DNA from: a virus | Length of the DNA stretch: 64,000 nucleotides | Virus record (IMG/VR): IMGVR_UViG_3300040801_001687 | Location: 1-64,000 of that record | Strand: one strand, 5' to 3' | Shown here: piece by piece, positions 1-25,218 of the stretch | Numbering within the stretch: position 1 is the first letter of the stretch | Layout: the number at the start of each line of letters is the position of its first letter | Notes under the pieces: generated by a model | Told to the model about the DNA's origin: nothing | Databases searched by the model: none | The model's input: only the letters and a program-made list of their open reading frames with translations | Position numbers and translations under genes: made by a program

Positions 1-64
1 AAATGTAGAGACCATACCAATCACCTTCACACCTAAACAAAAAGGCTCCGATGAAGAGACTTAA
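1..64 (+). CDS. 3' end of an ORF truncated by the window start (...NVETIPITFTPKQKGSDEET*)
   Basis: Open frame from 2 to TAA at 62-64, followed directly by a terminator hairpin. Confidence 0.5.
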   Translation, partial: NVETIPITFTPKQKGSDEET

Positions 65-71
65 TATTAAT

Positions 72-102
72 ACCCATAATTTTTATTGATTATGGGTTTT
101 TT
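72..102 (+). terminator. Rho-independent terminator
   Basis: Stem ACCCATAAT (72-80)/ATTATGGGT (89-97) followed by a T run. Confidence 0.7.
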
Positions 103-119
103 ATTTGAAATATTATTTC

Positions 120-127
120 TATATTTG
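120..127 (+). promoter_or_regulatory. Bacteroidota-type -7 promoter element TATATTTG
   Basis: Matches TAnnTTTG, 22 nt before ATG 150; no clean -33 TTG at the usual spacing. Confidence 0.55.
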
Positions 128-149
128 ATTAAATCAAAAATCAATCATT

Positions 150-425
150 ATGAAAAATCAAAATGAATTAGGAATCGAAGAGGAATTAGGAATGAATATA
201 AAAGATTATTCATTCATTAATAATTATGATGAATCTATAGGGTTTATAGAAATGAATGAAGGGTTAGCATTCCATAAAGATATGGATTTAGTTGTAGATA
301 GGCTGAATAAATCATATGTAGATGAAGCAATAGAAGGTAAGGGTTGGGAAGATTGGGAATATGACCTAGAAGGGCATAAATATAATCTTAAGTATAAAGA
401 GGATTTAAAAGGGTATATAGAATAA
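150..425 (+). CDS. Acidic hypothetical protein, early-type
   Basis: 91-aa ORF with A-rich leader; starts MKNQN like ORF 2875. Confidence 0.75.
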   Translation: MKNQNELGIEEELGMNIKDYSFINNYDESIGFIEMNEGLAFHKDMDLVVDRLNKSYVDEAIEGKGWEDWEYDLEGHKYNLKYKEDLKGYIE

Positions 426-437
426 AAATCAATAATT

Positions 438-767
438 ATGAAAACTTTCACAAAAGATGAATTTAACCAAAGGATAAAAGACCTTTGGGATGAAATGAAG
501 AAACCACACAATGAGATGGAGACACCTGCTGACCAGGTAAACTTTATATTGGAAGGGGAAATCATTGATGAAGCCGACAGGATAATGGGCGAAGGATATG
601 ATACATGGAACTTAATATCCATTATCATAAAGGATGCTAAACATCAAATCACATCAAGCGAATTATGCTCGATATTTGATGAAGGAAACCATTGCTTATC
701 CAATGGAACTATATTCTATGAGGATGAATATACCTACATACAATGGAGCAACAAAGGACACATTTAA
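438..767 (+). CDS. Acidic hypothetical protein
   Basis: 109-aa ORF with A-rich leader, followed by a hairpin. Confidence 0.75.
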   Translation: MKTFTKDEFNQRIKDLWDEMKKPHNEMETPADQVNFILEGEIIDEADRIMGEGYDTWNLISIIIKDAKHQITSSELCSIFDEGNHCLSNGTIFYEDEYTYIQWSNKGHI

Positions 768-775
768 ACCTTAAC

Positions 776-801
776 AGCCCTAAGGAATAACCTTAGGGCT
801 T
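776..801 (+). terminator. Perfect 10-bp hairpin, probable terminator
   Basis: AGCCCTAAGG-AATAA-CCTTAGGGCT; U-tail is weak. Confidence 0.55.
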
Positions 802-855
802 AACTGTGTTAACCTATCAAAAGACTATTACCAAAAAACAAATAAAAAAAAAACA

Positions 856-1623
856 ATGAGTACTAAAGGAAAGAAGAAGGAGAAGATTAAAAGAATACCA
901 AGAATCGCAGGCCTTACACAAAAGATGAAAGCCATTCACCTACAGAAAAACAAAAACAAGAAAAAAAGATTAAAGACTTCACTAAGGAATGAACTACTCA
1001 GAAGATATATAACGGAAGGATATTGCATTAACGGGATAAGGATGAATGTAGAAGAGGTATCTTTTTATCTTGGAGTTAGTTTAAGGGATGTAGTAAAAGG
1101 AATTAGTGATACTATGGCCACACTTTCAGGGCTAACGAAAGATGGAGGAATGGAGGAGGCTTATAGGGCGTTGTTGGCGATGGGGATTCAAAACTCACTA
1201 GCCGACCGAGGCCTAATACTTAACCAGGCCCAAGACCTTTTAAGGAGCCAGGGCAATCGCTACCAGCCTTTTTTATCAACAGCCGTGAACCAATCTCTTA
1301 AAAACCTAATGGATAGCCAGAAGCCTATTTTAGAATTAATTAAGGCCTTAAACCCACAAGGAGGTATCACTATTAATAATAATAACCAACAAGCTCAAGG
1401 GCAATATATGACTACTGCCGATGCTGTTAAAATGATAGACAAGAACAGGGAAGGCCTTTTACAATCTCCTGAGGCCCAACACCAACTGGGTGAATCCTAT
1501 GGGGTAAACGACCTTCCCGAGGTAATAGCTACCAAACAACGGGGCTTTAGGCTAGAGGACGATGCCATAATGGTTAAACAGTCCAAACCCACAGAACATG
1601 AAACTAGAAGAGAAAACGAATAA
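856..1623 (+). CDS. Hypothetical protein, possible terminase small subunit
   Basis: Basic N-terminus, HTH-like segment (NVEEVSFYLGVSLRDVVKGI), helical core and GGITINNNN beta segment, as seen in TerS proteins; no TerS candidate lies next to TerL. Confidence 0.4.
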   Translation: MSTKGKKKEKIKRIPRIAGLTQKMKAIHLQKNKNKKKRLKTSLRNELLRRYITEGYCINGIRMNVEEVSFYLGVSLRDVVKGISDTMATLSGLTKDGGMEEAYRALLAMGIQNSLADRGLILNQAQDLLRSQGNRYQPFLSTAVNQSLKNLMDSQKPILELIKALNPQGGITINNNNQQAQGQYMTTADAVKMIDKNREGLLQSPEAQHQLGESYGVNDLPEVIATKQRGFRLEDDAIMVKQSKPTEHETRRENE

Positions 1624-1916
1624 CCTATTACCCATACCTAATTACTTATATTCAACTTATCACTAAGGGGGAAATGCTCTTGATAATTTGTAGGTAGTAA
1701 GGTATGGGTTCTTTGTGTAGGTAGTTATTTCTTTTGTTTTGGGTACCTTAATGCCTTTACCTAAGAGTAGAAGGCCTCATACCTTAAATCTTATACACTA
1801 TATATAATTACCATAGCAGGTATCAGGCTTTCATGGCCTACAACCTTTACATCTAGGCCTTGATGGCCAGGTGCCAACAATCAAAAATAAAAAGAATATG
1901 GCCAATGATTAAAATG

Positions 1917-1947
1917 TTGCAAATGGTTTTTATTGTTCCTAAATTTG
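1917..1947 (+). promoter_or_regulatory. Bacteroidota sigma-70-type promoter
   Basis: TTG (1917-1919)-N20-TAAATTTG (1940-1947). Confidence 0.75.
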
Positions 1948-1977
1948 AAATATCAATTAATCAAAAAATATATAGAT

Positions 1978-2259
1978 ATGAATTATTTAGATCAAATAGA
2001 AAGAATCGAGACTACAACGGAATTACTAAATTCCATACGAAAAGAAAAAGGCCTTCATCCAAAAGATTCTTATAAATTGGGATTTCTAAAAACCTTAATG
2101 CAAGGCTTTGATGATAGAGCCGATATTGAAAATATTCTAAAGGCTATAGATGAAATGCGAAAGGAATTTTCCTTATTACATAAATTGATGCTGATAGAGG
2201 ATTACGAAAGCTCAAATGAGATTACTGACGAAGATGCTAGTACTCTTAAAGAACTTTAA
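1978..2259 (+). CDS. Hypothetical protein (start moved from TTG 1933 to ATG 1978)
   Basis: The TTG start overlaps the promoter; ATG 1978 follows an A-rich leader (MNYLDQ...). Confidence 0.7.
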   Translation: MNYLDQIERIETTTELLNSIRKEKGLHPKDSYKLGFLKTLMQGFDDRADIENILKAIDEMRKEFSLLHKLMLIEDYESSNEITDEDASTLKEL

Positions 2260-2299
2260 TAAGGAAATCAATTAATCAATATACTAAAATCACTAGACA

Positions 2300-2581
2300 A
2301 TGGAAAATTCAAGAACACTAATTTTAAGAAACAGAAAGAAAGAAATTGCCCAAATTGCTAAAAGCCTAAACCCTAAGGCCTTACCCAAAGACCCTAGGCA
2401 CCTTAGATACCTTGCTTCCCTAAGGCTTACCCTTGGCATTAAGAAAGATGAGGTATCAGATGAAGCCTTAATGACCTTTATAAGAAGAAGCCATAAGGCT
2501 AAGGAAGAAATAAAGACTACACAGATATACAAAGGCCTTAGACATTTAACATCTAAAGACCTTATTGCCATGATTGATTGA
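2300..2581 (+). CDS. Basic hypothetical protein
   Basis: 93-aa ORF with AATCAA-rich leader and downstream terminator. Confidence 0.65.
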   Translation: MENSRTLILRNRKKEIAQIAKSLNPKALPKDPRHLRYLASLRLTLGIKKDEVSDEALMTFIRRSHKAKEEIKTTQIYKGLRHLTSKDLIAMID

Positions 2582-2595
2582 TGGTTGATTGGATT

Positions 2596-2617
2596 GCCCT
2601 TCGGGGCTTTCTTTTTT
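2596..2617 (+). terminator. Rho-independent terminator with UUCG tetraloop
   Basis: GCCC-TTCG-GGGC followed by TTTCTTTTTT. Confidence 0.75.
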
Positions 2618-2803
2618 GATGTAAGTATTGGGCCTTAATGGCCTTAAACCTTAAAATGTTCCACTAGAATACCTTATACAATACATATATATAATTGCCA
2701 TAGCAGGCCCAATCCGCAGGTAGACTGGAATCTTTGGGGGAAATTTGGGGAAAAATGATGGATTTTTTGCCGAGAAAAAAGATAAAAAATAATTGCAGAA
2801 TAT

Positions 2804-2834
2804 TTTGCAGAATGATTTTTTATATATAGATTTG
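2804..2834 (+). promoter_or_regulatory. Consensus Bacteroidota promoter
   Basis: TTTG (2804-2807)-N19-TAGATTTG (2827-2834). Confidence 0.8.
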
Positions 2835-2874
2835 CATATATCAAAATCAATTAATTAATCAAAAATCAAAAATC

Positions 2875-3384
2875 ATGAAAAATCAAAATCAAAAAATCGA
2901 AGAGAAAAAAGGAAATCAATCAAAAGAAAATCAGATTGATAAAAAGAATTTGAATAATATCAAATTTGATTTAGGGAAAGGAAATTCTGAATTATGCAAT
3001 AAGGAAATGAAAATTTCCTTTAATAAAGGAATTTATAAGGATGAATTAATGAAAGAATTATCATCCGATGAGAGAAAGAAATTCCGAGGAAAGATAAGAA
3101 GAGATTTAAAGAGATTCATTTCCAATATATTAGGGAAAGATAGAAATGATTATGAAAGGATTTCTTCTTTATTTGCATTTATTTCTTTCTATCAAAAATA
3201 TTGGAGGATTCAAGATTTAAAGATTGAGAATTTTTCATCTTCAAGAAATGAAAAGGATTTAAAGGATTATAAGGATTTATTATCTTATATCGAATCATTG
3301 ATGCAAGGAAATAAAATAAATTCATTAGATGCAATGAAAGAGATATTAAATAATCAATTAAATGCAATGCAGGATAAAGGATAA
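2875..3384 (+). CDS. Hypothetical protein lacking Thr, Val, Pro and His
   Basis: 169-aa ORF with its own promoter and terminator, entirely inside the AC/GT-free segment. Confidence 0.8.
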   Translation: MKNQNQKIEEKKGNQSKENQIDKKNLNNIKFDLGKGNSELCNKEMKISFNKGIYKDELMKELSSDERKKFRGKIRRDLKRFISNILGKDRNDYERISSLFAFISFYQKYWRIQDLKIENFSSSRNEKDLKDYKDLLSYIESLMQGNKINSLDAMKEILNNQLNAMQDKG

Positions 3385-3409
3385 TTAATTAATCCTTATT
3401 CATGAATAT

Positions 3410-3455
3410 ATGAGAAATCAGATGGATTATCCCCCATTCGATTTCTCATTTTTTT
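3410..3455 (+). terminator. Rho-independent terminator
   Basis: ATGAGAAATC (3410-3419)/GATTTCTCAT (3440-3449) followed by a T run. Confidence 0.75.
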
Positions 3456-3594
3456 ATCCTCCTTCCACACCAAGCCCCTCTTGCACCACCCGGACCTCCC
3501 GTATGAGACCCAAAACCCATCAGGTATAGGCCCATAATTTAAAGAAGCCAACCCAAACACTCGGGGGTTCCCAGGCTATACTATAAAAACACAT

Positions 3595-3630
3595 AAAAAA
3601 GGCCTATATAAAAAATATATAAGCCCTTTC
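3595..3630 (-). terminator. Probable terminator of the leftward operon
   Basis: A run then GGCCTATATA...TATATAAGCC hairpin, downstream of minus-strand ORF 3649. Confidence 0.5.
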
Positions 3631-3648
3631 CCATGATAGACCCAAGCC

Positions 3649-3915
3649 TTAATCCCCAGGCCCAGAAGCAGTACCTTCCTTAACCCCACCCTTAGCAGGT
3701 GTAATATCCAGGTAATACTCTTCACCTTCAATAAAAATATTAGATGCAAGAGTACCTTTACTTATATCTAATACCAAGTTACCCGAAGGTGTGTATTTAG
3801 AGAAACTATTATTCTCCTCATTACCATCAATTAAAGCTACAAATGAAGCCTGAATAATTTCATTCTCTTGCTCCATTAATCTTTGACATATAAATTTTGC
3901 TCTTACTGTACTCAT
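3649..3915 (-). CDS. Small beta-rich phage protein, paralogue of 4121-4396
   Basis: VRAKF...FSKYTPSG...FIEGEEYYLDITP. Confidence 0.75.
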   Translation of the reverse strand: MSTVRAKFICQRLMEQENEIIQASFVALIDGNEENNSFSKYTPSGNLVLDISKGTLASNIFIEGEEYYLDITPAKGGVKEGTASGPGD

Positions 3916-3917
3916 AA

Positions 3918-4109
3918 TTATATATGGGTTTTACTAAGCCCTCCCAAGGCCTTATTATCTTTATTAATTGGAAGCCTATCATAGCATTCCTTAGAACATA
4001 CTATAGGTTCTGTAGGTAATCCTAAACATCCACAATCTCTACCCGAGCAACACATCTTAGGTTCTTCTCCTTCAAACTCCTTACCACATACTTGACAATT
4101 TAATTTCAT
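3918..4109 (-). CDS. Cys-rich small protein, putative zinc-binding
   Basis: 8 Cys in 63 aa (CxxC...CC...CxC...CxxxC). Confidence 0.7.
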   Translation of the reverse strand: MKLNCQVCGKEFEGEEPKMCCSGRDCGCLGLPTEPIVCSKECYDRLPINKDNKALGGLSKTHI

Positions 4110-4120
4110 AACTTTTATCT

Positions 4121-4396
4121 TTATCCTGGCCTATTATCTAAATCCTCATCAAAGGGTGTACCCATTACTGCTGAATCTTTATTAAGGCCTCTACTATTAA
4201 CCGGGTCAATAGAAAGGTAATACTCTTGGCCTTCTTTAAAAGGTTCAATTCCAGCATTAGCATCTGATACTACTACTTGTAGGCTTAAGGGTTTAGATTC
4301 ATCCTTATTCTCATCAACAGGCCTAAATCTAAAAACAACAATCCCATATTGGGGCTCATCCTGTTTACTTACACATTCCATTTTAATCTTTTCCAT
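4121..4396 (-). CDS. Small beta-rich phage protein, paralogue of 3649-3915
   Basis: KIKMEC...FKEGQEYYLSIDP. Confidence 0.7.
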   Translation of the reverse strand: MEKIKMECVSKQDEPQYGIVVFRFRPVDENKDESKPLSLQVVVSDANAGIEPFKEGQEYYLSIDPVNSRGLNKDSAVMGTPFDEDLDNRPG

Positions 4397-4407
4397 AACT
4401 CTATAAT

Positions 4408-4719
4408 TTAAAATGCTTCTACTTTAAAGACCTTCTTTTTATATAAAGGCCTTAATGATACTTGGTTTTTCCTAAGGTGTAAGGTATCACCTTTATCATA
4501 ATAGGCCTCATAGTATCTTATATAATACTCTCTAGTGTTTTCAATATCTTTTAAATCATATCTTATCATTCTTTCCCCTTCTTTATGGACTTGAGTGATT
4601 AAATACTCCTTAGAGCATCCCGAAAGAGTGATTATCAATAAGATTATTAAGATAGTAAAAATAATTGCATCAAAGCGGGATTGGTTACCCTGTGGTCTAG
4701 TTCCGTTTCTATAGTTCAT
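4408..4719 (-). CDS. Putative lipoprotein
   Basis: Hydrophobic stretch ending in lipobox LSG-C. Confidence 0.65.
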   Translation of the reverse strand: MNYRNGTRPQGNQSRFDAIIFTILIILLIITLSGCSKEYLITQVHKEGERMIRYDLKDIENTREYYIRYYEAYYDKGDTLHLRKNQVSLRPLYKKKVFKVEAF

Positions 4720-4880
4720 CTTTTTTTATCTTTAGGAAATAATAATGCTATGGGTTTACCCTTATCCCATAATACTCTACAGTTAAAGTGTCTTGATATA
4801 TACCAACCATTAAACTCCTTTAATTCATCGGGGTCCATGTAACCCTTAATAAAATTTATAATATCTTTTGACCTACTCAT
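4716..4880 (-). CDS. Hypothetical 54-aa protein, not in the ORF track
   Basis: MSRSKDIINFIKGYMDPDELKEFNGWYISRHFNCRVLWDKGKPIALLFPKDKKR*; ATGA overlap with the next gene; fills the operon gap. Confidence 0.7.
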   Translation of the reverse strand: MSRSKDIINFIKGYMDPDELKEFNGWYISRHFNCRVLWDKGKPIALLFPKDKKR

Positions 4881-4882
4881 CT

Positions 4883-5140
4883 TTATCTGAAGTTGAAGTT
4901 ATAATAAATAATAGCTCCTAATAATATCCCAAAAACTATAGTCCAAATTATAAACATAACCCATAGAATATTATTTCTATACTCTAAGTGGGGTTTTCTT
5001 AATTTATTATCATTATAAAACCCTGACATCTTATCTGCCCATTCTTTTTCTTTCCAAGTCTTTATTATAGACTTACCTATTATAACAAATCCCATAATAA
5101 AGGGTATAGATAATAATGATATAAATATTAATAAAGCCAT
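4883..5140 (-). CDS. Two-TM membrane protein
   Basis: Two hydrophobic segments. Confidence 0.7.
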   Translation of the reverse strand: MALLIFISLLSIPFIMGFVIIGKSIIKTWKEKEWADKMSGFYNDNKLRKPHLEYRNNILWVMFIIWTIVFGILLGAIIYYNFNFR

Positions 5141-5142
5141 AA

Positions 5143-5658
5143 TTAAAACCTTTTAATATTTGATAAATCCTTAATACCTGACCAAATCCCCAATAATTCT
5201 ATATGGTGTCTTTCCTTTTCCAATATAAAGGTATCAAATATACTTTGGTATTTGGGTATAAAATATTCATTGACTTTACTAAATAAATTACTATAAATAT
5301 CATCAGCATATTCTATCTTATGGTGGCCATCTAATTTATCAATATTTTTATTAAACTCCAATTCAGGAAATATATCATTTAATTTATACCCATAATTTAC
5401 TTCTATGGGTTTTTTATAGGATATAACCTTATAATAAAAATTTGATACTACCATGGGGTTATATAATACAGATAAACCCAACCCATATTTAATATTATTC
5501 CTTATATCTAGTGAAGAGATAAATGATACTTCGGATAAATCCACATAATTATCATCTATTGTCACTAGGGAATCCCTTTTATTGCCTCTTTGAGATTCTA
5601 ATACTCCTTTGATTAATTGAAGTTGTTTAATAATCTCATTAGCTGTTAATTCTTTCAT
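5143..5658 (-). CDS. Hypothetical protein
   Basis: 171-aa ORF in a tightly packed operon. Confidence 0.7.
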   Translation of the reverse strand: MKELTANEIIKQLQLIKGVLESQRGNKRDSLVTIDDNYVDLSEVSFISSLDIRNNIKYGLGLSVLYNPMVVSNFYYKVISYKKPIEVNYGYKLNDIFPELEFNKNIDKLDGHHKIEYADDIYSNLFSKVNEYFIPKYQSIFDTFILEKERHHIELLGIWSGIKDLSNIKRF

Positions 5659-5846
5659 ATTCCAAAAATTAAAATGTAAGACATATACCCGGTTACAATT
5701 AAACCTAATATATTTAAAACTATATAATACCTAAAAGCTTCTTCAGTGTAGGTTTCTCTAAAAGTATAAAGGGTGGCTATATTAACTATGGATAAAATAA
5801 ACAATGCAACCATTAACCCAGTAAAAGTTGTTAATATCCAGCTCAT
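5655..5846 (-). CDS. Two-TM small membrane protein
   Basis: Hydrophobic, with 4-nt overlaps at both ends. Confidence 0.7.
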   Translation of the reverse strand: MSWILTTFTGLMVALFILSIVNIATLYTFRETYTEEAFRYYIVLNILGLIVTGYMSYILIFGI

Positions 5847-6205
5847 AATTCTTCTGTTTGTTCTTCATCAGTTAAAACTCTAGTTACCCAAATATAATTA
5901 ACTTCTTTTTTATATTGGGTCTTTAATGTATACCTAAATAAATTTAAAGCATTCCAAAATATTATATTTTTATAATCTTTATCAAAAAACTCATTTATGT
6001 AGGCATACCTAAAACTAGGAGTGTATATTTGTCCTCTATCTATTCTTGAAGCAAAGGATAAAGCTATACCCTCATCAATATCTTCAATTTTATAAATACC
6101 CTCCACTGAAAGGTTTCCATGACCTTTAAATTTTTTGTGGAAGGTTTCATAGGTTTTCTTGTTTATGGGTATTATATCCCAACCGTTTAATTATATTGAT
6201 TCCAT
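5843..6205 (-). pseudogene. Hypothetical gene interrupted by an in-frame TAA at codon 5 (or a sequence error); alternative GTG start at 6106
   Basis: ATG 6205 has a good A-rich leader and is in frame with GTG 6106; reads MESI*LNGWDIIPINKKTY... Confidence 0.55.
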
Positions 6206-6231
6206 ATTATTGTTTAAATGGTTAATAAAAT

Positions 6232-6261
6232 AAAACCCCCACAACTAAAGAGGGGTTTTTT
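6232..6261. terminator. Terminator-like hairpin, potentially bidirectional
   Basis: AAAACCCC(C)...GGGGTTTTTT. Confidence 0.6.
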
Positions 6262-6330
6262 AATTTCAAATTAATAGGTTATACTCAAAACCCAGTTATA
6301 AAGAACTCTTAGTTGATTTCTTTTGATATT

Positions 6331-6361
6331 CAAAAATAGTCAATTATATATTAAAATGCAA
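6331..6361 (-). promoter_or_regulatory. Bacteroidota-type promoter, leftward
   Basis: Minus strand TTG-N20-TATTTTTG. Confidence 0.7.
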
Positions 6362-6395
6362 CATTTATCTTATTGGCCAAGAAAATTGTAGACAC

Positions 6396-6427
6396 AAAAA
6401 AAATCGGAAGGTAATCACTCCTTCCGA
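6396..6427 (-). terminator. Rho-independent terminator, minus strand
   Basis: TCGGAAGG/CCTTCCGA stem with an A run on its left. Confidence 0.65.
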
Positions 6428-6551
6428 CTCCAATTAATCAAATAATCATTAATCATTAATTAAAATTTACCGAGCATAAATTCAATAATAATGAAAGAAT
6501 CATAATTAAATAGTCACTTAGGTTAACTATTTTAATCACCACTAGCAAATC

Positions 6552-6902
6552 TTATGCTCCATAGTTACTCACCTCTTCCATTAAAAACTGATAATTTACT
6601 TTATCTTTGGGTAATTGGAATATAATATTAACATGGGTGGATAATTCTTTACCTGATTTAGAATGGTTATGGTGAACTTCCCACCTTTTATAATTAGGTA
6701 ATCGTTTAAAGAAAGAAGTAGCGGGGAAATACCTAAATTCATAGGGTTTTAAGAAAATCCTAATAAAGCAATACTTATCTCTATCAGAATTCATACCTAT
6801 ACCCCATTTATAATTATGCTTCCTTAGGAGGTTAATAAACTCCTTATTATTAGCTAAATCATGGCTAATGCTTTCTAAAGTTTTTTCTAGGTTGGGATTC
6901 AT
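6552..6902 (-). CDS. Hypothetical protein
   Basis: 116-aa ORF, stop/start overlap with the upstream gene. Confidence 0.7.
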   Translation of the reverse strand: MNPNLEKTLESISHDLANNKEFINLLRKHNYKWGIGMNSDRDKYCFIRIFLKPYEFRYFPATSFFKRLPNYKRWEVHHNHSKSGKELSTHVNIIFQLPKDKVNYQFLMEEVSNYGA

Positions 6903-7396
6903 TATTCCGAGAATTTTGATATTAGATATCTTTTAAGCTCTATTCTATCCTCCTCTGAAAGGTATTCTTTAGATTTAGCCTTTAAATCTATATGAACAAT
7001 TTTATCTAAAGGTATTTCAGTACTTTCCAATAATTCTCTAGCCTCATCACTACCTTTTTCCTTGAATATTTGTACATACTTATTGGGTTTAATATATTCA
7101 GGAATAAATAAAACATCGGCTATATTACCTGAACTTAGCCTTACATTTTTAAATAGCCAATGAGAGGATAATTTAAAAGTAATATCATTATAGAAGCCCG
7201 ATTCACTGGATTTAGTTAAATCATTTCTTTTGGGTTTAATTATCTTATCGGGTAATATCCCATTAGCATCTTTTAATACTAATACCCAAAATTGGTTTTC
7301 ATTAATGTAATCGGCTTTATATTCCCATTTAGGCCAAAATTTAACGGATACCATTTTGATTATCCATAATTTGATTTTTTGAATAATTTTCTTCAT
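6902..7396 (-). CDS. Hypothetical protein
   Basis: 164-aa ORF. Confidence 0.7.
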   Translation of the reverse strand: MKKIIQKIKLWIIKMVSVKFWPKWEYKADYINENQFWVLVLKDANGILPDKIIKPKRNDLTKSSESGFYNDITFKLSSHWLFKNVRLSSGNIADVLFIPEYIKPNKYVQIFKEKGSDEARELLESTEIPLDKIVHIDLKAKSKEYLSEEDRIELKRYLISKFSE

Positions 7397-7430
7397 AGTT
7401 TTCGAGTTTAAATGAAAATAGTATTAATTA

Positions 7431-7601
7431 TTATTCTGAATACCTACCTCTAATAAAAGATACTAGATTTATACATCCAAGTAATAAACATAATCTCATA
7501 TAAACCCAAAATGGTAAACCCCAAATTGTAAAGAGAAAAGCAAATACCATTATAAAATGTAACCAATATAACCCTCTATTAAACTTTTGTAGGTCATTCA
7601 T
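7431..7601 (-). CDS. Small two-TM membrane protein, 56 aa, not in the ORF track
   Basis: MNDLQKFNRGLYWLHFIMVFAFLFTIWGLPFWVYMRLCLLLGCINLVSFIRGRYSE*. Confidence 0.55.
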   Translation of the reverse strand: MNDLQKFNRGLYWLHFIMVFAFLFTIWGLPFWVYMRLCLLLGCINLVSFIRGRYSE

Positions 7602-7611
7602 ACAATACTTA
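7602..7611 (+). promoter_or_regulatory. Putative phage late promoter motif ACAATACTTA
   Basis: Same 10-mer upstream of genes at 7649, 16905, 22710 and 23167. Confidence 0.6.
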
Positions 7612-7648
7612 TTTATATTTCAAAAATTAAATAGTAACCCTTAAAAAA

Positions 7649-8641
7649 ATGAGTATATTAGCAATATGTGGAGGTAACGGAGTATTAGCTCACCCCTTCA
7701 AGAAACACTTAATAGGGAATATAGAGCCTAGAACTGTATTTCATACTCCTGACCACATCCAATGGAGGCTTAATTTTAATATCCCGTTTGATAAAGACCC
7801 TTTAGTTAGGTTTCCAAAATCAGATGTAAGTATTATAGTGGGAGCACCGGATTGTGGCCACTCTTCCGTATTAGCTTATTCAAGAGCTAAAAAACTATCG
7901 GACCCCAAATTAAACACATCCTTAAGTTTATACCTTGAAAACGTTGACTATTATAGGCCTGAAATCTTTATGATGGAGAACTTACCTAAGCTTTTAGAAT
8001 CCGATAAAACTATTATACCTTTTTTTGAATCACTAGGTTATAGGGTATTTATTTATGAGGAACCCGTATCGGCTTGGGGAAATTCTCAAATAAATAGAAA
8101 AAGGCTTATAATAATTGGTATATCTAAAAACCTTAAAAACAAAAAGAAATATTTTAGGTTACCAAAAGAAAGGTACCTTAAGAGCTCTGGTGAACTTATA
8201 GAAGGTTTGGGTAAAGAAGAGATACCTGAATTATGTCATGTAAGGGAATTAGATGATTGGAGGCTTCCAATGTATTATGGTGATGAGAGAAATATAAGTG
8301 TTAAGCAGGCTAGAAATTTATGGAAGCAGTATGGTACTAGAAAATGGCCAGTACCTAATTCAAAAATGAATAATCAACCAGGGGTATATAGAAACCTAGA
8401 TTCTGATTACCCAATGACTGTAAGAAAACAATCTAGGCAATTCAGAGAGGATGGATACCTTCTTACACCAAGGGAAATGGCTAGAATTCAAGGTGTACCT
8501 GATAATTTTAAATTACACTTTGAAGAAGATAGAAGGCTTTACTTTATTAATAAAGCTAGAGCAACTGTAACAAAATGTCCACCTTATCAAATAGGTGAGT
8601 GGTTTAATAAATGTTTAATTAAAATGAATTATTATGGATAA
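7649..8641 (+). CDS. DNA (cytosine-5) methyltransferase
   Basis: Motif I-like CGGNG, motif IV GAPDC, motif VI MENL, motif VIII QxNRKR, motif IX LTPREMARIQG. Confidence 0.9.
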   Translation: MSILAICGGNGVLAHPFKKHLIGNIEPRTVFHTPDHIQWRLNFNIPFDKDPLVRFPKSDVSIIVGAPDCGHSSVLAYSRAKKLSDPKLNTSLSLYLENVDYYRPEIFMMENLPKLLESDKTIIPFFESLGYRVFIYEEPVSAWGNSQINRKRLIIIGISKNLKNKKKYFRLPKERYLKSSGELIEGLGKEEIPELCHVRELDDWRLPMYYGDERNISVKQARNLWKQYGTRKWPVPNSKMNNQPGVYRNLDSDYPMTVRKQSRQFREDGYLLTPREMARIQGVPDNFKLHFEEDRRLYFINKARATVTKCPPYQIGEWFNKCLIKMNYYG

Positions 8642-9221
8642 GTTAATATGGAAACCCCAAGACAGATGGTTTAAGAAAGACCCACAATTTATTATAGCTC
8701 ACTCTATTTCAGAGTATATAGTAGATGTAAGAGGGGATGTAGGAGAAAAGGGTAAAGTTTATCACTTTATAGAATTTTTACAAATTATAGGTTTAGGCTA
8801 TCACCAGTTTGTAGAAGATGAAGATGGCTCTAAATACAATGGCCAAGATTTAGACAGATTAGCATGGCATGCAGGTGTATCAGAGGTTAGAGGTGTTACT
8901 TCTTTAAATTTCAAAAGCCTTGGAATTTGTTTTGTTGTAAAAGGGGAATATAGTTATGGCCAATTTTTAAAGAAAATCAAATACCCTGATGCTTACAATG
9001 AAGGCCAATACTTATATGGAGCTAATTGGATAGCTAAACAATGTATAAGGTTAGGAATAACTGAAAAAGAGATTTATAGACATTCAGACGTAAGTGGTAA
9101 AGACATTAGACCTAAAGACCCTAAATATGACCCCGGTGATGGTTTTGACTATTACAGATTAAAATCAATGGTAGCCCATAATATTTACCAAATTAATAAC
9201 GGGACTCCCCCTACTAATTAA
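8634..9221 (+). CDS. N-acetylmuramoyl-L-alanine amidase (Amidase_2 endolysin)
   Basis: IIAHS, AWHAG, SLGI and RHSDV...KxDPG zinc-amidase motifs. Confidence 0.85.
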   Translation: MDKLIWKPQDRWFKKDPQFIIAHSISEYIVDVRGDVGEKGKVYHFIEFLQIIGLGYHQFVEDEDGSKYNGQDLDRLAWHAGVSEVRGVTSLNFKSLGICFVVKGEYSYGQFLKKIKYPDAYNEGQYLYGANWIAKQCIRLGITEKEIYRHSDVSGKDIRPKDPKYDPGDGFDYYRLKSMVAHNIYQINNGTPPTN

Positions 9222-9238
9222 TATAGATATACATAAAA

Positions 9239-9305
9239 AGGGGATAGAAATATAATATATCCATCTCCCCCTAAGGGGGGATATATATATATTTCTTTCA
9301 CCCCT
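9239..9305. repeat. Long imperfect inverted repeat
   Basis: GGGGATAGAAATATA...CCCCCTAAGGGGG...TATATTTCT...CCCC. Confidence 0.55.
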
Positions 9306-9349
9306 ATTATATACCATATAGAAAAAAGAAAAAGATAAAAAGAAAAAAG

Positions 9350-10066
9350 ATGAAAACCTGGATTAACCCACAAAACGTATTATTGGCCATATTAATAATT
9401 ATGGTTACAATATTCTGGCTAGATAGAAAAGGCCAAGATGAGATTGCTAAAGAGTATTGGGAAAACCCAAACTTTAAAACCGATTCAATAAAGGTTTACA
9501 TTGATTATGATAAATTACCAAAACCCCAATATACTAATTATGTTCCCCCTGCAGTAAACATAAAATATATTGATCCCACAAAATCCTATAAGACGACGCA
9601 AGTTATAAAAAATGATTCTTTACTATTGATTATTGATTCCATGAGGGATGAGTTCACTAGAATCTCTCTTAGGTATCTCAAAAATAATCCTGAAGCATGG
9701 AAGATACTCTATGGAGAATTTAACTCAGATACAGTATCATTTGACATGGTAAACCTTGAGGGAAACACTATTACCGATAAGTATGCAGTTAACTTCAATA
9801 GGTTTAAATATCAATTAGTATACAATGAGGGAAGGCCAATTTTTAAAGCATCTTCACCTATTCAATCAGATTTTAATAACAAAGACCCATTATCACATGA
9901 ATTTTATGTAGCACCAGGGTATATGCTTTTAAGAAAAAGCCCTTCAGTAGGTCTTGATTATAACGCAAAGTGGAGGAATTTAAGATTTAGAGCTGATGGT
10001 ACTATTTCAATCGAAACAAATCCACAGTTATTCTTTAAAGTAGACGCAGGTTATAAAATATGGTAA
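9350..10066 (+). CDS. Membrane protein next to the endolysin; candidate spanin-like lysis protein
   Basis: N-terminal TM helix; C-terminal amphipathic beta strands ending in GYKIW. Confidence 0.5.
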   Translation: MKTWINPQNVLLAILIIMVTIFWLDRKGQDEIAKEYWENPNFKTDSIKVYIDYDKLPKPQYTNYVPPAVNIKYIDPTKSYKTTQVIKNDSLLLIIDSMRDEFTRISLRYLKNNPEAWKILYGEFNSDTVSFDMVNLEGNTITDKYAVNFNRFKYQLVYNEGRPIFKASSPIQSDFNNKDPLSHEFYVAPGYMLLRKSPSVGLDYNAKWRNLRFRADGTISIETNPQLFFKVDAGYKIW

Positions 10067-11637
10067 CAGGGGAAACTAATATATCAGATTCGAGAAAAGA
10101 AGCTAATAAGTTAATAAATGCCCCTTTAACGTCAGAACAATTTGACATACTGACTAAAGTTGCTTATGACCCTTTCTTCTTTTCAACCTTTATATATGTT
10201 ATTAATGCAGTACAAGGAAAAGTAAGGTTTGATTTATACCCTTATCAAAAATCAGTACTTTGGAGCTTTATACATAGGAGGTTTAATATAATCCTTAAAT
10301 TTCGTCAAGCTGGGATTACAGAGCTTATATCATTATTTTGTCTATGGTATGCAATGTTTCACCCGAATAAAAACATAAACATTATTTCCATTAAGGATAC
10401 CGTTGCTAAGAAGGTATTAAGGAAAATCAAGTTTATGTATAGAAACCTACCAGAATTTTTAAAGGTTCAAATAATTAATGGTAGAACTAAAGATTTAGGA
10501 ACTGCAAGCGAGATGGAATTTGCTAATGGTTCAATCATTACATCCATACCAACCACCGAGGAGGCTGGACGTTCTGAATCTTTATCTCTACTTGTAATTG
10601 ATGAAGCTGCTATAATTAGATGGGCAGACCAGATTTGGGCAGCAGCTTTCCCAACATTATCAACTGGTGGACGGGCTATACTTAACTCTACCCCGTACGG
10701 TATAGGTAACTTCTTTCACAAAAAATGGGTGGAAGCTTGTTCAGGGGGAAATGAATTTACACCCATTAGGCTTAAATGGAGAATGCACCCTGACAGAGAT
10801 ATTGAATGGTATAAGCAAATGTCTACTGCTTTGGGACCAAGAAGAACAGCTCAGGAAATTGATGGTGATTTCTTAACTTCGGGTGCATCAGTATTTGATT
10901 TAATGGATATAAGGGCAATAGAGGAGAACTTAGACCAATATATACCATTAAACCTTAGAAAAGACCCACTATTTTCTAAATTATTTAAAGGAGATATTAG
11001 GCAATTAAGTGATTTTTTACAGATATTTGATAAACCCAAAAAGAACAAGAAATACACAATTGGTTCAGATATTGCAACAGGACGTTCACGAGATTATTCC
11101 GCTTTTACAATAATGGACCAAGAAGGTGAAGAGGCCGGTTCTTTTAAAATGAAGCTTCCAGTTAATGAGCTATCATTATTACTTGCAAGGTTGGGTAATA
11201 TTTATAATAGAGCGACACTAGCACCAGAATCTAATGATATAGGTTTAGCCGTTTCTTCCAAATTACAAGAGGATGGTTACTCTAATCTTCATTACTCTGT
11301 TAAGTTAATAAAGCAGAAAAGAGAGAAAAGACCTAAAGAAGAAAAAATTCCAGGTTGGTATACTACTTCTAAAAATAGACCCATAATTATAAATGAGTTA
11401 GAGGAAGATATTAGATTAGGTAATATAAATATTAAAGATGAAGCTTTTGTACAAGAGGCTTATACTTTTATATATGATGATAAAAATAAACCCATAGCAA
11501 TGGGGAAAGGGAGCGGAAGTTCTGACTCCTTAGCGGATGATGATGATGCTTATGTAGATGATGCCATATTAGGTAAAGCTATCACAAATCACGTAAGAAA
11601 GATAAAACAAAGAGGATTAATAGTTCTACCACAATGA
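10060..11637 (+). CDS. terL: Terminase large subunit
   Basis: Adenine-binding LYPYQ, Walker A-like KFRQAGIT, Walker B LVIDEAA, STPYG, RNase H-fold SDIATG...DYS. Confidence 0.95.
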   Translation: MVTGETNISDSRKEANKLINAPLTSEQFDILTKVAYDPFFFSTFIYVINAVQGKVRFDLYPYQKSVLWSFIHRRFNIILKFRQAGITELISLFCLWYAMFHPNKNINIISIKDTVAKKVLRKIKFMYRNLPEFLKVQIINGRTKDLGTASEMEFANGSIITSIPTTEEAGRSESLSLLVIDEAAIIRWADQIWAAAFPTLSTGGRAILNSTPYGIGNFFHKKWVEACSGGNEFTPIRLKWRMHPDRDIEWYKQMSTALGPRRTAQEIDGDFLTSGASVFDLMDIRAIEENLDQYIPLNLRKDPLFSKLFKGDIRQLSDFLQIFDKPKKNKKYTIGSDIATGRSRDYSAFTIMDQEGEEAGSFKMKLPVNELSLLLARLGNIYNRATLAPESNDIGLAVSSKLQEDGYSNLHYSVKLIKQKREKRPKEEKIPGWYTTSKNRPIIINELEEDIRLGNINIKDEAFVQEAYTFIYDDKNKPIAMGKGSGSSDSLADDDDAYVDDAILGKAITNHVRKIKQRGLIVLPQ

Positions 11638-13175
11638 AGTTATTATATACAGATTACGAAAAAGACCAGAAAGAAAAAGAAGCCCTTATTAAAGAGGTTA
11701 GAGAACTTAAGTCTAAAATCGTTGAAGTTGAGAAAAAGAAAGTAGTTGTTAATACTACTCCATCTGTTTCAAGAGATAATGGTAAGGATTTTCTAAAAAA
11801 CCTTGAGGCTTCTCTTAAAGTTGTTACACCTGAATTTGATTTTGGAGTAATTCCAGTTATTAGAAAGCTTTCAAAAATTAACCCTGATGTTAACCAAGCT
11901 TTAAATGACTTTATTAAGTTAGCTAATACAGGCCATAAAATTAAATTCGATGATTCAGTATCAGGTGAGAAAATGGAGGAGGTAAGAAATTACCTTACCG
12001 AAGAAGCTAAAAATTGGCATACTGGAGCAGCTGGGATGAATGGTATAGTTAATAAGATGTTTAGGCAGATGCAAGTAGGGGGAGCTTTATCGAATGAGTG
12101 GATTCCTAATATGAGCCTTGATGGTATAGAAGAGATTAGGTTTTTAAATCCTGAAAATGTTCGATTTATTGTTGAAAAGAAAAGGTCTAAATACCACCCC
12201 TATCAACAATTACACCATACTCCTTTAAATAATAAACAAGGATTTCAAAACCTAAGAAGATTAAACACTAACCAATATAAGTACTATGCTTTAAATGGTG
12301 ATACAGATTTACCTTATGGTATCCCCCCTTATATTGCTGCATTAGAGCCCATATCTACTCAACGTAAAATGGTAGATAATATAAACTTTATTATTGAAAT
12401 GATGGGTATATTGGGTTACATAGATGCTAAAATTGATAAACCAGACCAACAAGCAGATGAAAATGATGAAGCTTACGAAAAGAGGTTAAATAAATTATTA
12501 ACCGATTTTAAAGATAGAGTTAAAGAGGGAGTAAGAGATGGTATTAGTGTTGGATTTATGGACGACCATGAATTTGATTTTAAACAAACTGCTAAAGATG
12601 CTAGGGGAGTTAAAGATTTATTTGACCAAAACGAGTTATTAATTGCAGGGGGATTAAATTATGATGCTATATTTATGGGTAAACCCGGTTCTACTGAAAC
12701 CCTGGTTACTGTAATGTTTACTAAAATGATTTCCTCATTAACTAACATCCAAAATATAGTTAAGGAGAATTTAGAGTTTGGTTATAAGTTAGCATTAACC
12801 TTAAAGGGTTTTAAATTTAAATCTTTACATGTAGAGTTTAACAAATCCACAGTTACCGATAATCTTAAATATCAACAAGCTAAAGAGATTCTAACTAGAA
12901 ACCTAGAAACTCATTTCAAATACGGTTTAATATCATTACAACAATTTGCGGATGAGTTAGGTTATGAATCACCTGACCAGAAAGAACCTAGAATATCTTT
13001 AGAAGGTGCACCTGATGCAATGGGTGATGCTAAAAAGAAAGAGGATAGAGAAAAGGATAAGGATAAGTCAGATAGAAAAAGCCGAGATAAATCAAACCCC
13101 CAAGGCACTGTCAAAAGACAGAATAAACAAGACTTTAGTATAATTGATAAGAACACAATAGCTTTAGACAATTAA
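11634..13175 (+). CDS. Portal protein
   Basis: Lies after TerL, 513 aa, PYGIPP motif, charged C-terminal tail. Confidence 0.85.
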   Translation: MKLLYTDYEKDQKEKEALIKEVRELKSKIVEVEKKKVVVNTTPSVSRDNGKDFLKNLEASLKVVTPEFDFGVIPVIRKLSKINPDVNQALNDFIKLANTGHKIKFDDSVSGEKMEEVRNYLTEEAKNWHTGAAGMNGIVNKMFRQMQVGGALSNEWIPNMSLDGIEEIRFLNPENVRFIVEKKRSKYHPYQQLHHTPLNNKQGFQNLRRLNTNQYKYYALNGDTDLPYGIPPYIAALEPISTQRKMVDNINFIIEMMGILGYIDAKIDKPDQQADENDEAYEKRLNKLLTDFKDRVKEGVRDGISVGFMDDHEFDFKQTAKDARGVKDLFDQNELLIAGGLNYDAIFMGKPGSTETLVTVMFTKMISSLTNIQNIVKENLEFGYKLALTLKGFKFKSLHVEFNKSTVTDNLKYQQAKEILTRNLETHFKYGLISLQQFADELGYESPDQKEPRISLEGAPDAMGDAKKKEDREKDKDKSDRKSRDKSNPQGTVKRQNKQDFSIIDKNTIALDN

Positions 13176-22709: not shown

Positions 22710-23123
22710 ATGCCAGTACTTAATGCTTTTAAAAGAAGAATGTTCGATAGCCAATTGGCTTTAGGGGATTTAAAAATGATGTTATTGGATGATAACCATT
22801 CAACAGATATAGACACTCAAGAGTTTATTGATGATATTTCTGCTAATGAGGTATCATCTTCCGGCTATACCGCAGGGGGAGTAACTTTAGCCAACCCTAA
22901 TGTAGTAGTTGATAATGCTAATGACGAAGCCTCGATTGATGCTGACAATGTTTCTTTAGTGGGTATAACTGCTACCGTAAGATATCTAGCTTTCTATGTT
23001 GACACGGGAACTCCTGGTACTTCTCCTATTATAAACATCTATGATTTAACTACTAACCAAGTTTTGAATAACCAAGATTTGGATATTAATTTTGAATCTA
23101 CTGGTATAATAGGTTTAGCATAA
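22710..23123 (+). CDS. Small virion structural protein (NEV..SGYTAGG type)
   Basis: 137 aa, acidic, has its own promoter motif. Confidence 0.7.
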   Translation: MPVLNAFKRRMFDSQLALGDLKMMLLDDNHSTDIDTQEFIDDISANEVSSSGYTAGGVTLANPNVVVDNANDEASIDADNVSLVGITATVRYLAFYVDTGTPGTSPIINIYDLTTNQVLNNQDLDINFESTGIIGLA

Positions 23124-23125
23124 AA

Positions 23126-23135
23126 ACAATACTTA
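23126..23135 (+). promoter_or_regulatory. Putative late promoter ACAATACTTA
   Basis: Conserved 10-mer before the sheath gene. Confidence 0.6.
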
Positions 23136-23166
23136 ATATTTCTAATATAAATAAATGTAATTAATT

Positions 23167-24723
23167 ATGCCAAATTCTGCAAAAGTTAAATTTAATGAAA
23201 TTGACCTTTCTTCTTTTATTGATTCACTAATAGGGGGTATAGCTGCAGTTTCATTACAAACCCTAAGAGGCCCTTATGGACATGATGGTTCTGTAATTGC
23301 TACTTGGCCTGAGTTTGTAAAGAAATATGGGGGAGAGGTTGAAGGTTTAGAAGGTGCATCTTTAGTAAAGAGAGCATTTTCTTATGGTTGTGCATTAAGG
23401 GTAAATAAGGTTGGTAATTATACTGACCCGGCAGATGCTGGAACTCTTACTGCTGAAAAAGCAGCTTTTGATGCTGCTCTGGGTTCTAATGCTGTTGATA
23501 CAGAGGATTATTTTGAAGTAGTTCCAAAATATGCCGGAGCTGACTATAATAACTTAGTAGTTCAAATATTAGAGGCTTCCAATGGAGATGCTGATGCCTT
23601 TGATTTAGTTGTATCACACCTTAATGAGCCATCTTTGGGAGAAATTTATCAAAACTTAAAAATTGAGGGTACTCCTACTATTGCTGAATCCGATTATCTT
23701 AACAGAGTAAAATCTGGTTCAGCTCTTATAGATATTAACTATTTGGATTGCTCTGGATTATCAGGACAATTAAGACCCGATGATGGTACATATTCAGCAA
23801 CAACTGGTTCTAATGGTGACCCAGTAACAGCAGCGGACTATGAAGGCGATGAAGCCGGGGGTACTGGAGTATATGCTTTTGACCAATACAGTGATTTTGA
23901 GGTTATAGCTTCTTTAGATAATTCAGATACTTCGGTATTACAAGCATATTCAGCTTACACTGACAGTAGACAAGATTCAGTAACATTTGCACACCTTAAG
24001 AATACTTCTAATACTGTAACTAAATTAATTACTGAAAGAGGGGATACAAATATAGATTCTCGATTCACTGCTTTCTTTGCGGGGGGTTTAGAAATCCCTG
24101 ACCCATTCCTAGAAAATACTCAAAAAGAAATTTCTGAATTAGGGGATGTATTGGGGTTAGCAATGTTCTCTTCAAGAGAATTTGGCCCATGGTGGAGTTT
24201 TGCTGGAACCCAAAGGGGGGTAATAAGAAATGCCTCTGATGTAGTTAATAATTTCTATGGGGCTAACACTATTAAGTTAGACCAACTTGCTCAAAGACAA
24301 ATTAACGTAGTAGTTAATCAAAACGGTAGAATCTATATTAAAGGAAATTTTTCTGCCCAAATGGCTTCTTCAAGAAAAAGCTTTTTAAATGTGGTTAAAT
24401 TAATTATATTTATTAAGAAATCACTAAGGCCTAATATGGAACTTTATTTAGAAGAACCGAATGACTTTAGAACCTTCTTACAAATATACAACGAAGTGGA
24501 ACCGTTTTTATCATCTTTAGTAGGGGGAGAAAAAAGAGCTTTAGTTGATTATGAGTGGAGGGGTGACCAATTTGCTACAAAGGATTCTGAGTTAGTGATT
24601 AATAATAGAGCTGATTTAGACCAAGGTAAATATAGAGTTCAACTTTGGTTAAAAGAAGTAGTCTCTTTACAAGAGTTTACTATTGATATTATCTCTGCAC
24701 CATCCGGCGTATCTTTTGAATAA
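23167..24723 (+). CDS. Tail sheath protein
   Basis: EIDLS N-terminus, WWSFAG..RG, FLNV..L, EEPND motifs. Confidence 0.92.
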   Translation: MPNSAKVKFNEIDLSSFIDSLIGGIAAVSLQTLRGPYGHDGSVIATWPEFVKKYGGEVEGLEGASLVKRAFSYGCALRVNKVGNYTDPADAGTLTAEKAAFDAALGSNAVDTEDYFEVVPKYAGADYNNLVVQILEASNGDADAFDLVVSHLNEPSLGEIYQNLKIEGTPTIAESDYLNRVKSGSALIDINYLDCSGLSGQLRPDDGTYSATTGSNGDPVTAADYEGDEAGGTGVYAFDQYSDFEVIASLDNSDTSVLQAYSAYTDSRQDSVTFAHLKNTSNTVTKLITERGDTNIDSRFTAFFAGGLEIPDPFLENTQKEISELGDVLGLAMFSSREFGPWWSFAGTQRGVIRNASDVVNNFYGANTIKLDQLAQRQINVVVNQNGRIYIKGNFSAQMASSRKSFLNVVKLIIFIKKSLRPNMELYLEEPNDFRTFLQIYNEVEPFLSSLVGGEKRALVDYEWRGDQFATKDSELVINNRADLDQGKYRVQLWLKEVVSLQEFTIDIISAPSGVSFE

Positions 24724-24743
24724 ACTTAAATAAAATATAGATT

Positions 24744-25199
24744 ATGGCTAACGTATCAAATCCACATAAAAAGTTTCAATTTAGTATAGCTATATTGGGC
24801 ATGAATCCATTTCTTGCTCAAAAAGTTACTACTGCGGAAAGAGATTTAGACCAGGTGGAACATGGAGAAGGAAACCATGTTATTAAAACAGCTGGTATGG
24901 TAAAATTAGGAAACATAATGGTAGAAAAGATTTCATCTGCCGATGGGCCTGATAGATTATTTTGGGATTGGATTGCTTCAATTCAAAATGAATTTATAGG
25001 TGGGGGTTTAATTCCTGACAATTATAAATTCCCAATACAAATACAGAAATATGCCACTGATGGTCTTACTGTAATTGCAACCTGGAACTATATAGGATGT
25101 TGGGTAAAGAAAATCAATGGGGTGGAACTCGACAGAGTATCATCTGAAAATACCATTGAGAGTTTGGAGTTATCAGTAGATAGACAAGCTTATTTATAA
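24744..25199 (+). CDS. Tail tube protein (T4 gp19-like)
   Basis: NP...FQF, LFWDW, W....CW...ELD....E..IESLEL. Confidence 0.9.
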   Translation: MANVSNPHKKFQFSIAILGMNPFLAQKVTTAERDLDQVEHGEGNHVIKTAGMVKLGNIMVEKISSADGPDRLFWDWIASIQNEFIGGGLIPDNYKFPIQIQKYATDGLTVIATWNYIGCWVKKINGVELDRVSSENTIESLELSVDRQAYL

Positions 25200-25218
25200 A
25201 ACTAAAATTTACTATTTG

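Follow-up and report, generated by a model that had tools for sequence, protein, structure and literature searches.

A GGCC-centred palindrome array at the distal end of the small-gene block of a Flandersviridae-like phage, and its possible role in DNA packaging

In phages P22, SPP1, P1 and T4, pac sites lie inside terS, the gene for the small terminase (TerS). P1 pac consists of seven hexamers, with Dam sites, in ~160 bp around one cleavage point. In P22, SPP1 and T4 (gene 16) the recognition DNA is present in single or few fixed stretches of 20–100 bp inside the gene of its own reader, a TerS that binds DNA through its N-terminus and the large terminase (TerL) through its C-terminus. Here we analyse an array of 28 GGCC sites spread over 3.6 kb of viral DNA, at positions 910–4507 of a stretch of 64,000 nucleotides (positions 1 to 64,000 of IMG/VR record IMGVR_UViG_3300040801_001687; hereafter ‘the window’). 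The array is located in the early or small-gene block, at its distal end, over and beyond the open reading frame (ORF) that starts at position 856, whose product, ORF 856, is probably a small terminase. We conclude that the array is very probably a selected set of palindromic recognition sites that acts at the level of DNA; packaging is among its possible functions.

The locus resembles P1 pac in having short palindromes, hexamers whose 4-bp core can be methylated, placed in and around the candidate TerS gene (pacA in P1), in a genome with a phage DNA methyltransferase-like gene and packaging that is probably of the headful type. It differs from P1 in that 28 sites occupy 3.6 kb with no defined centre, and in that any methylation would be of the C5 kind rather than by Dam. 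As in P22, SPP1 and T4, the putative reader is encoded by DNA that carries the sites, and its models suggest a DNA-binding N-terminus and a TerL-binding C-terminus; unlike in those phages, the density of sites is conserved here while their positions are not. An earlier note on this DNA, drawn from the letters alone, had compared the array with the SRL/SRR repeats of T7. Both are arrays of short CCTAA-like words near a presumed packaging region. The T7 repeats, however, are regular, non-palindromic heptamers that flank a physical terminal repeat, whereas those described here are irregular and have a palindromic core; the comparison fails on repeat type, spacing and type of terminase.

The description of the array in the earlier note proved accurate. 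All 28 positions that it listed for GGCC are exact, with 18 in 910–2709, ten in 3529–4507 and none in 2710–3528; the other 60 kb of the window contain 76. It had stated that many sites read AGGCCT or AAGGCCTT, which is the case for 15 and seven of the 28, respectively (15 of the 24 AGGCCT and seven of the eight AAGGCCTT in the window), that sites occur within coding sequence on both strands, which we found for 18 sites, in all three frames, the remaining ten being non-coding, and that CCTTA/CCTAA half-sites are packed between them; of CCTTA/TAAGG there are 43 where the rest of the window predicts 12.6. Predicted in the same way, AGGCC/GGCCT occurs 39 times instead of 3.4 and AAGGCCT 18 times instead of 0.5. 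AGGCCT reaches ~25 times its expected copy number across the 3.6 kb. As a control we used 1000 local dinucleotide-preserving shuffles of 900–4520, which are harsher because they retain the excess of GG, GC and CC that the motif itself creates. The shuffled sequences contained 10.1±2.9 GGCC (maximum 19, observed 28), 1.2±1.1 AGGCCT (maximum 6, observed 15) and 15.3±3.6 CCTTA/TAAGG (maximum 30, observed 43). The earlier note had further proposed plotting short-word density along the genome; when all words of four to six letters were scanned without prior choice across the full 77-kb genome, AGGCC in 501–4500 was the top 5-mer cluster (p ~8e-21). A second, weaker enrichment of AGGCCT lies at 66–73 kb of the genome, beyond the window. 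The features of the region are as follows.

910–2709, no strand: left array arm, with 18 GGCC, nine of them AGGCCT, and dense CCTTA/TAAGG half-sites.
3529–4507, no strand: right array arm, with ten GGCC, six of them AGGCCT, mostly in the 3′ parts of leftward small genes; found only in this genome.
856–1623, plus strand: ORF 856, 255 amino acids, probable displaced small terminase; seven GGCC that arise from lineage-specific codon choice.
1624–1932, plus strand: non-coding module 1, upstream of the next gene's start, with a terminator-like long hairpin (1630–1709) followed by five GGCC (1773–1900), of which the sites at 1835 and 1856 are able to pair as a local hairpin.
1933–2259 and 2300–2581, plus strand: two small genes of unknown function, the second saturated with CCTTA/TAAGG/AGGC half-sites.
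2582–2874, plus strand: non-coding module 2, with a short terminator hairpin, three GGCC (2631, 2640, 2706) and, after the second copy of a direct repeat, a Bacteroidota-type promoter match from 2804.
2725–3466, plus strand: AC/GT-free cassette of 743 bp, with ORF 2875–3384 and no GGCC; context and not part of the array.
3385–3660, no strand: zone in which rightward and leftward transcription converge, with a hairpin (3402–3457), a C-rich tract and a minus-strand terminator (3595–3631) whose stem includes the GGCC at 3601.
3649–3915, 3918–4109, 4121–4396 and 4408–4719, minus strand: four leftward small genes that carry eight right-arm sites.
7649–8641, plus strand: C5-cytosine methyltransferase-like gene, which adjoins TerL in all five related genomes.
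10060–11637, plus strand: T4/Ackermannviridae-type large terminase, with which ORF 856 is predicted to pair.

Site density is similar in coding and non-coding DNA (~8 and ~11 per kb, respectively), and within genes the sites are written by the choice of codons. When synonymous codons were shuffled within an ORF, preserving both the protein and the ORF's own codon usage, the gene for ORF 856 was found to contain four AGGCCT against 0.5 in the shuffles (p<0.001) and ORF 4121–4396 four GGCC against 1.5 (p=0.009). Codon-level comparison placed all seven sites of the ORF 856 gene at residues for which its orthologues use different codons, as at the invariant Gly-Leu close to the N-terminus; the GGCC counts in these orthologous genes, this one included, are 7, 5, 3, 1 and 0. 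Aligned half-sites give a logo of GGCC-T (71%), then T/A, then A. The array's half-sites show no strand polarity; an array of the Chi or KOPS kind is ruled out on this ground. Spacing between sites is irregular, from 9 to 327 bp.

The same type of array recurs in related phages. The DNA came from three sequencing runs of one microbial-mat sample, as assembled contigs; the source contig is 77,187 bp long, the window being its first part, and its ends overlap by 117 bp, which indicates a circular assembly. Judged from its sequence, the genome is that of a 77-kb Flandersviridae-like myovirus. It encodes TerL, portal, protease, major head protein, sheath, tape measure and baseplate, together with DnaB, a helicase, PolA, a UvsX-like recombinase and SbcC. 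Among cultured phages its TerL matches T4-like and Ackermannviridae terminases, and a megablast search of positions 1–12000 of the window against cultured phages gave no match. Its closest relatives are MT121964 (human faeces, 75.5 kb) and two contigs of 76 and 80 kb (G001 and G002, respectively), followed by a large set of 85–88-kb gut contigs represented by the 87.7-kb Flandersviridae member G003; the G003-type relatives are numerous and closely related, and we count them as one lineage rather than sixty. TerL and portal are 60% and 41% identical to those of G003, and across the related genomes TerL is 58–70% identical and ORF 856 26–42%. Similarity of TerL and portal, synteny and a TerL that joins Ackermannviridae all place the genome with this group. 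Flandersviridae were defined by a TerL that joins Ackermannviridae, a contractile tail and DnaB, DnaG and PolA, followed by ~20 kb of unknown ORFs, and their hosts are Bacteroides and Parabacteroides (Benler et al., 2021; PMC8008677). With them the present genome shares synteny, the contractile tail, DnaB, PolA and the long block of unknown small genes that contains the GGCC array; it differs in its size of 77 kb, its origin in a microbial mat and its membership of a sister clade in which the AC/GT-free cassette is present.

In all five complete genomes, this one included, the best 4-kb window for a GGCC-type word falls in one and the same block of small genes, either around the ORF 856 homologue or downstream of it, with the following words and significance.

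This genome: AGGCC/GGCCT, p 6e-23.
MT121964: AGGCC/GGCCT, p 9e-13.
G003: AGGCC/GGCCT, p 2e-10.
G002: GGCC, with flanks TGGCCA/CGGCCG, p 4e-7.
G001: AGGCC/GGCCT, p 5e-5, a weak signal.

De novo ranking of k-mers in the syntenic region of MT121964 placed AAGGCC(T) first, AAGGCCT occurring 11 times there and once in the other 68 kb. In ~60 Flandersviridae contigs the densest 2-kb window contains 10–21 GGCC, about half of the sites in 20 kb, and always begins downstream of the ORF 856 homologue, at a distance of 5–7.5 kb. The array in these contigs is located in two non-coding modules, 75–95% identical between contigs, which flank a replaceable gene segment. Five of six GGCC sites within the modules are kept in at least 33 of 37 sequences; in the same 37 sequences, conservation of the GGCC columns did not significantly exceed that of the other module columns (permutation p 0.19). 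Two spacers of G002 contain tighter groups, one with six GGCC in 70 bp, including three GGTATGGCC repeats (L009:10860–10945), the other with five GGCC in 90 bp at 10-bp spacings (L009:11695–11795). Each is preceded by a TTGCGCGC word, and both look like discrete, putative protein-binding boxes.

A candidate for a small terminase that could read such sites was not found beside TerL. The gene directly upstream of TerL is not a candidate because its product has an N-terminal membrane helix, and no other candidate adjoins TerL. ORF 856 is probably the displaced small terminase of the family. Its family comprises 473 clusters at 50% identity. ORF 856 has no Pfam match and no significant PHROG match, its family profile matched no PDB sequence, and a single-sequence search of viral contigs also gave no match, so that finding homologues took an alignment. 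The predicted structure (predicted local distance difference test score, pLDDT, 81) has an N-terminal helix-turn-helix (HTH) domain, a helical hairpin at residues 99–165 and a conserved C-terminal region. When the N-terminal domain was modelled by itself, the best rows were sigma region 4 and LuxR-type DNA-binding domains (E 0.6–2.4), none above background, and the best rows for the hairpin included T4-like and G20c TerS (Z 8.7–8.9), again none above background. Language-model neighbours included T5_Terminase_small at 0.92, which we treat as a lead only. Prediction of the complex of ORF 856 with TerL scored 0.63, against 0.35 for the best control, passing a mark that is reached by 58 of 80 solved complexes and two of 110 mismatched pairs. 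In the prediction, residues 184–238 of ORF 856 dock on residues 19–272 of TerL, in the N-terminal ATPase domain; the runs share at least 73% of contacts and the partner pLDDT is at least 56. The pass may partly reflect likeness to solved complexes, this being a textbook pairing; ORF 856 has no detectable sequence similarity to solved TerS–TerL complexes.

With such a candidate at hand, the array can be read as a zone of packaging recognition for the displaced TerS, a reading that we place first among those considered but hold tentatively, as possible rather than probable. The array would be a pac-like zone on concatemeric DNA in which the small terminase gathers and from which it passes the DNA on to the large terminase of T4 type; headful packaging would accordingly begin within the array; the C5-methyltransferase may be a second reader, or a writer, of the GGCC core. 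The sites, mostly (A)AGGCC(T)T, occur both within genes and in non-coding DNA towards the far end of the small-gene block, where in this genome they cover the gene for ORF 856. Consistent with a packaging zone, the array here and in G001 and G002 overlaps the candidate TerS gene and continues directly after it, as expected of a pac site: in this genome seven sites lie in the ORF 856 gene and eight in the two downstream spacers.

Several observations weigh against a packaging zone. In G003-type genomes the array is not in or next to the TerS gene: in Flandersviridae proper that gene contains zero or one site and the array lies 5–7.5 kb away, so that what is constant is association with distal non-coding modules and not with terS. 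Nor is the array compact, its 28 sites being spread over 3.6 kb, whereas known pac and cos recognition regions measure ~20–300 bp. Between orthologues, density within the zone is conserved and the positions of individual sites are not. No helical phasing of the sites was detected (Rayleigh p 0.23), and residues of the TerS HTH recognition helix differ among this genome, MT121964 and G003, all of which use AGGCCT. T4-type terminases are, moreover, thought to be only weakly sequence-specific (for Det7, PMC11260489). Finally, the assembled contigs of the one sample show neither a terminus nor a pile-up of read starts nor a terminal repeat: what repeat there is at the ends is the 117-bp overlap of the assembly, and one sample contig spans 615–4727. 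The T4/Ackermannviridae type of the TerL suggests headful packaging; for the Ackermannviridae phage Det7, headful packaging has itself been inferred solely from likeness to T4 (PMC11260489). Word depth was 1.5- to 2-fold higher over ~1200–3346 in the three runs; we do not take this as a terminal repeat because it tracks G+C and coverage is 3–9×. The proposal in the earlier note that these are terminase-binding arrays around the packaging end is thus borne out in that the array is real and that ORF 856, with its predicted docking on TerL, is a good TerS candidate, while no packaging end has come to light.

A second possibility, which seems to us rather unlikely, is that the sites are operators at which a dimeric phage regulator, bound to the palindromes, switches early or cassette promoters, for example in early-gene shut-off. 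Palindromic sites would suit a dimer, and in this genome, MT121964 and G003 many of them are found where a conserved non-coding module separates a terminator from the next host-type promoter; sigma-like, HTH and NusG-like proteins conserved throughout the family are candidate readers, the conserved HTH proteins being encoded at 62784–63776 and 43294–43947. Nevertheless, 18 of the 28 sites lie inside genes, where they are made by synonymous choices, their distance to promoters is not fixed, and no regulator is linked to the motif. The KorB boxes of RK2 and the stoperators of mycobacteriophage L5 are comparable in that many copies, some of them intergenic, are read by one protein across a multi-gene block. 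They differ in being at least 13 bp long, fewer per kb and largely intergenic, whereas here a 6- to 8-bp palindrome recurs 8–11 times per kb and also within genes.

The methyltransferase could also be central to the array. The methyltransferase-like protein is encoded just upstream of the TerL cluster in five of five genomes, its versions being 39–55% identical to each other, with a catalytic Pro-Cys motif P-(D/S)-C and, in the five orthologues, shared motifs in the variable region. If it recognises GGCC, the array would be a cluster of methylation targets and an epigenetic mark, acting as a timer of replication or packaging, as at P1 pac, or as a protective sink against a restriction enzyme that recognises GGCC or AGGCCT; we regard this as unlikely. 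In its favour, the lineage-invariant part of the motif is the 4-bp GGCC core, while the flanks vary (AGGCCT here, TGGCCA/CGGCCG in G002), which argues for specificity of methyltransferase width rather than for a diverging HTH. The enzyme is kept beside TerL with its variable-region motifs, and M.HaeIII is its best, if weak, solved match; GGCC is not avoided genome-wide, while GATC is almost absent. On the other hand, the match to M.HaeIII (E 1e-5) is generic, the two proteins being collinear and of equal length with no residue similarity in the variable or target-recognition region, so that the target is not inferable from it. Restriction-avoidance analysis, which found no avoidance of GGCC in these genomes, does not reveal the target either, and a mark alone gives no reason for clustering. 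In the 7649–8641 protein and four orthologues, P-(D/S)-C-G replaces the usual P-P-C-Q and ENL replaces ENV. The start codon of the gene directly follows a divergent promoter region (7601–7649).

Methylation and packaging could be combined, as in P1 and as the earlier note had suggested: the methyltransferase would mark a kilobase-scale GGCC zone as ‘self’, TerS would read it, and packaging would be epigenetically gated. We think this quite unlikely; were it true, a logic like that of P1 pac would be expanded ~20-fold in a very common group of human gut phages.

We also consider it decidedly unlikely that the array is a segregation or replication element, that is, a centromere- or origin-like platform for an episomal replicating form. 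Dense arrays of short palindromes do resemble plasmid centromeres and viral maintenance elements, and in this genome an AT-rich segment adjoins the array. The sites, however, are irregular, partly coding and not iterated units, and although cumulative GC skew turns here, the turn coincides with the switch of gene strand and is therefore uninformative about an origin. Persistence of Flandersviridae as circular episomes, on which Benler et al. speculated, would favour such an element, but their study found no partition genes, which counts against it (PMC8008677).

A further possibility is that the GGCC-rich non-coding modules are recombination linkers, conserved flanks for the exchange of cassettes between related phages. 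The modules of ~50 Flandersviridae contigs (75–95% identical) flank unrelated replacements of 0.4–1.2 kb, the arms of the array flank the AC/GT-free cassette in this genome, and parts of the modules are duplicated (a ~45-nucleotide repeat and a shared leader). Such linkers would leave unexplained the sites made by synonymous codon choice in TerS and in the leftward genes, and GGCC is no more conserved than the rest of the module (by the permutation test given above); we regard this explanation of the array as improbable. At L010:16930–17510 and the homologous places of ~50 loci, the segment between the modules is swapped for unrelated DNA of 0.4–1.2 kb, and is a hot spot of cassette replacement. 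That the array has no function, having arisen from the composition of the region, from codon usage or from the recent import of a segment, is very improbable: although G+C is 0.37–0.44 in parts of the region against a genome mean of 0.32, the site count exceeds all 1000 dinucleotide shuffles and also the synonymous shuffles, and in a relative with only 26–42% protein identity the same k-mer forms the top cluster of the syntenic region.

The array and the AC/GT-free cassette appear to be separate elements. According to the earlier note, the array flanks the AC/GT-free segment symmetrically. This is correct for the present genome, where the GGCC-empty middle needs no special explanation because the cassette has a G+C content of 24–26%, but in the cassette-bearing relatives the array lies on the TerS side only, with 7 GGCC against 0 on the other side in G001 and 16 against 3 in G002. 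Conversely, MT121964 and the G003-type genomes have the array without the cassette. Array and cassette are thus independent, and neighbours here by chance. The cassettes of G001 (L008:10971–11741, 770 bp) and G002 (L009:11786–12570, 784 bp) contain a homologue of ORF 2875–3384 with 49–50% identity. No AC/GT-free run longer than 193 bp was found in the 78 other loci of the family that were examined, and MT121964 has none longer than 120 bp.

Few phages are detected as often in human gut metagenomes as Flandersviridae; their defining paper mentions neither a small terminase nor a GGCC array, and describes the ~20-kb block as without detectable similarity to characterised proteins (PMC8008677). 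The present analysis adds a small-terminase candidate for the whole family, a conserved and easily scored DNA feature inside that uncharacterised block, and a concrete, testable way in which a conserved methyltransferase and a 4-bp core motif could be linked to packaging or regulation. Should the array prove to be a packaging or regulatory signal, it would offer a handle for mapping genome ends, predicting transduction and engineering uncultured phages.

Further observations concern the non-coding modules and the rest of the genome. A direct repeat of ~45 nucleotides occurs at ~1779–1826 and ~2669–2712 (ATACCTTA ... TATATATAATT.CCATAGCAGG), one copy in each non-coding module and upstream of the next gene; these are the only two copies in the genome, and they may represent a duplicated regulatory element. 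ORF 150–425 and ORF 2875–3384 have a common leader and first codons (132–205 and 2857–2927; MKNQN...), which, at the sequence level, indicates a duplicated promoter–leader–start unit. A similar tandem duplication is present within the cassette of L008 (~10980–11060 and ~11160–11260). A structured RNA is not supported: modules 1624–1932 and 3385–3660 fold with z ~−3, chiefly because of terminator hairpins, 2582–2800 with z +0.2, and RNAalifold of 37 Flandersviridae modules gave a single compensatory pair, inside a terminator. Rfam gave one chance snoRNA row only and no tRNAs were found; a Pfam search with 20 proteins of the small-gene block gave nothing usable. The strict Bacteroidota promoter pattern had few matches, and a sigma-70 scan was at chance level.

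GATC is nearly missing genome-wide, with three sites against ~211 expected here and eight against ~326 in G003; its depletion is mild in the other three relatives (MT121964, G001 and G002). TCTAGA, ATCGAT and TTCGAA are also strongly depleted in this genome, and together these deficits suggest that restriction pressure is strong and specific to the host. The gene between the amidase gene and TerL (9350–10066), which is conserved in G001, G002 and MT121964, encodes one N-terminal membrane helix followed by a beta-rich C-terminal part and is probably a member of a lysis cassette rather than a packaging gene. In G001, from whose record L008 is taken, the TerL gene matches as two pieces with ~800 bp between them (~22887–25397), which suggests an intron, an intein or a homing-endonuclease insertion.

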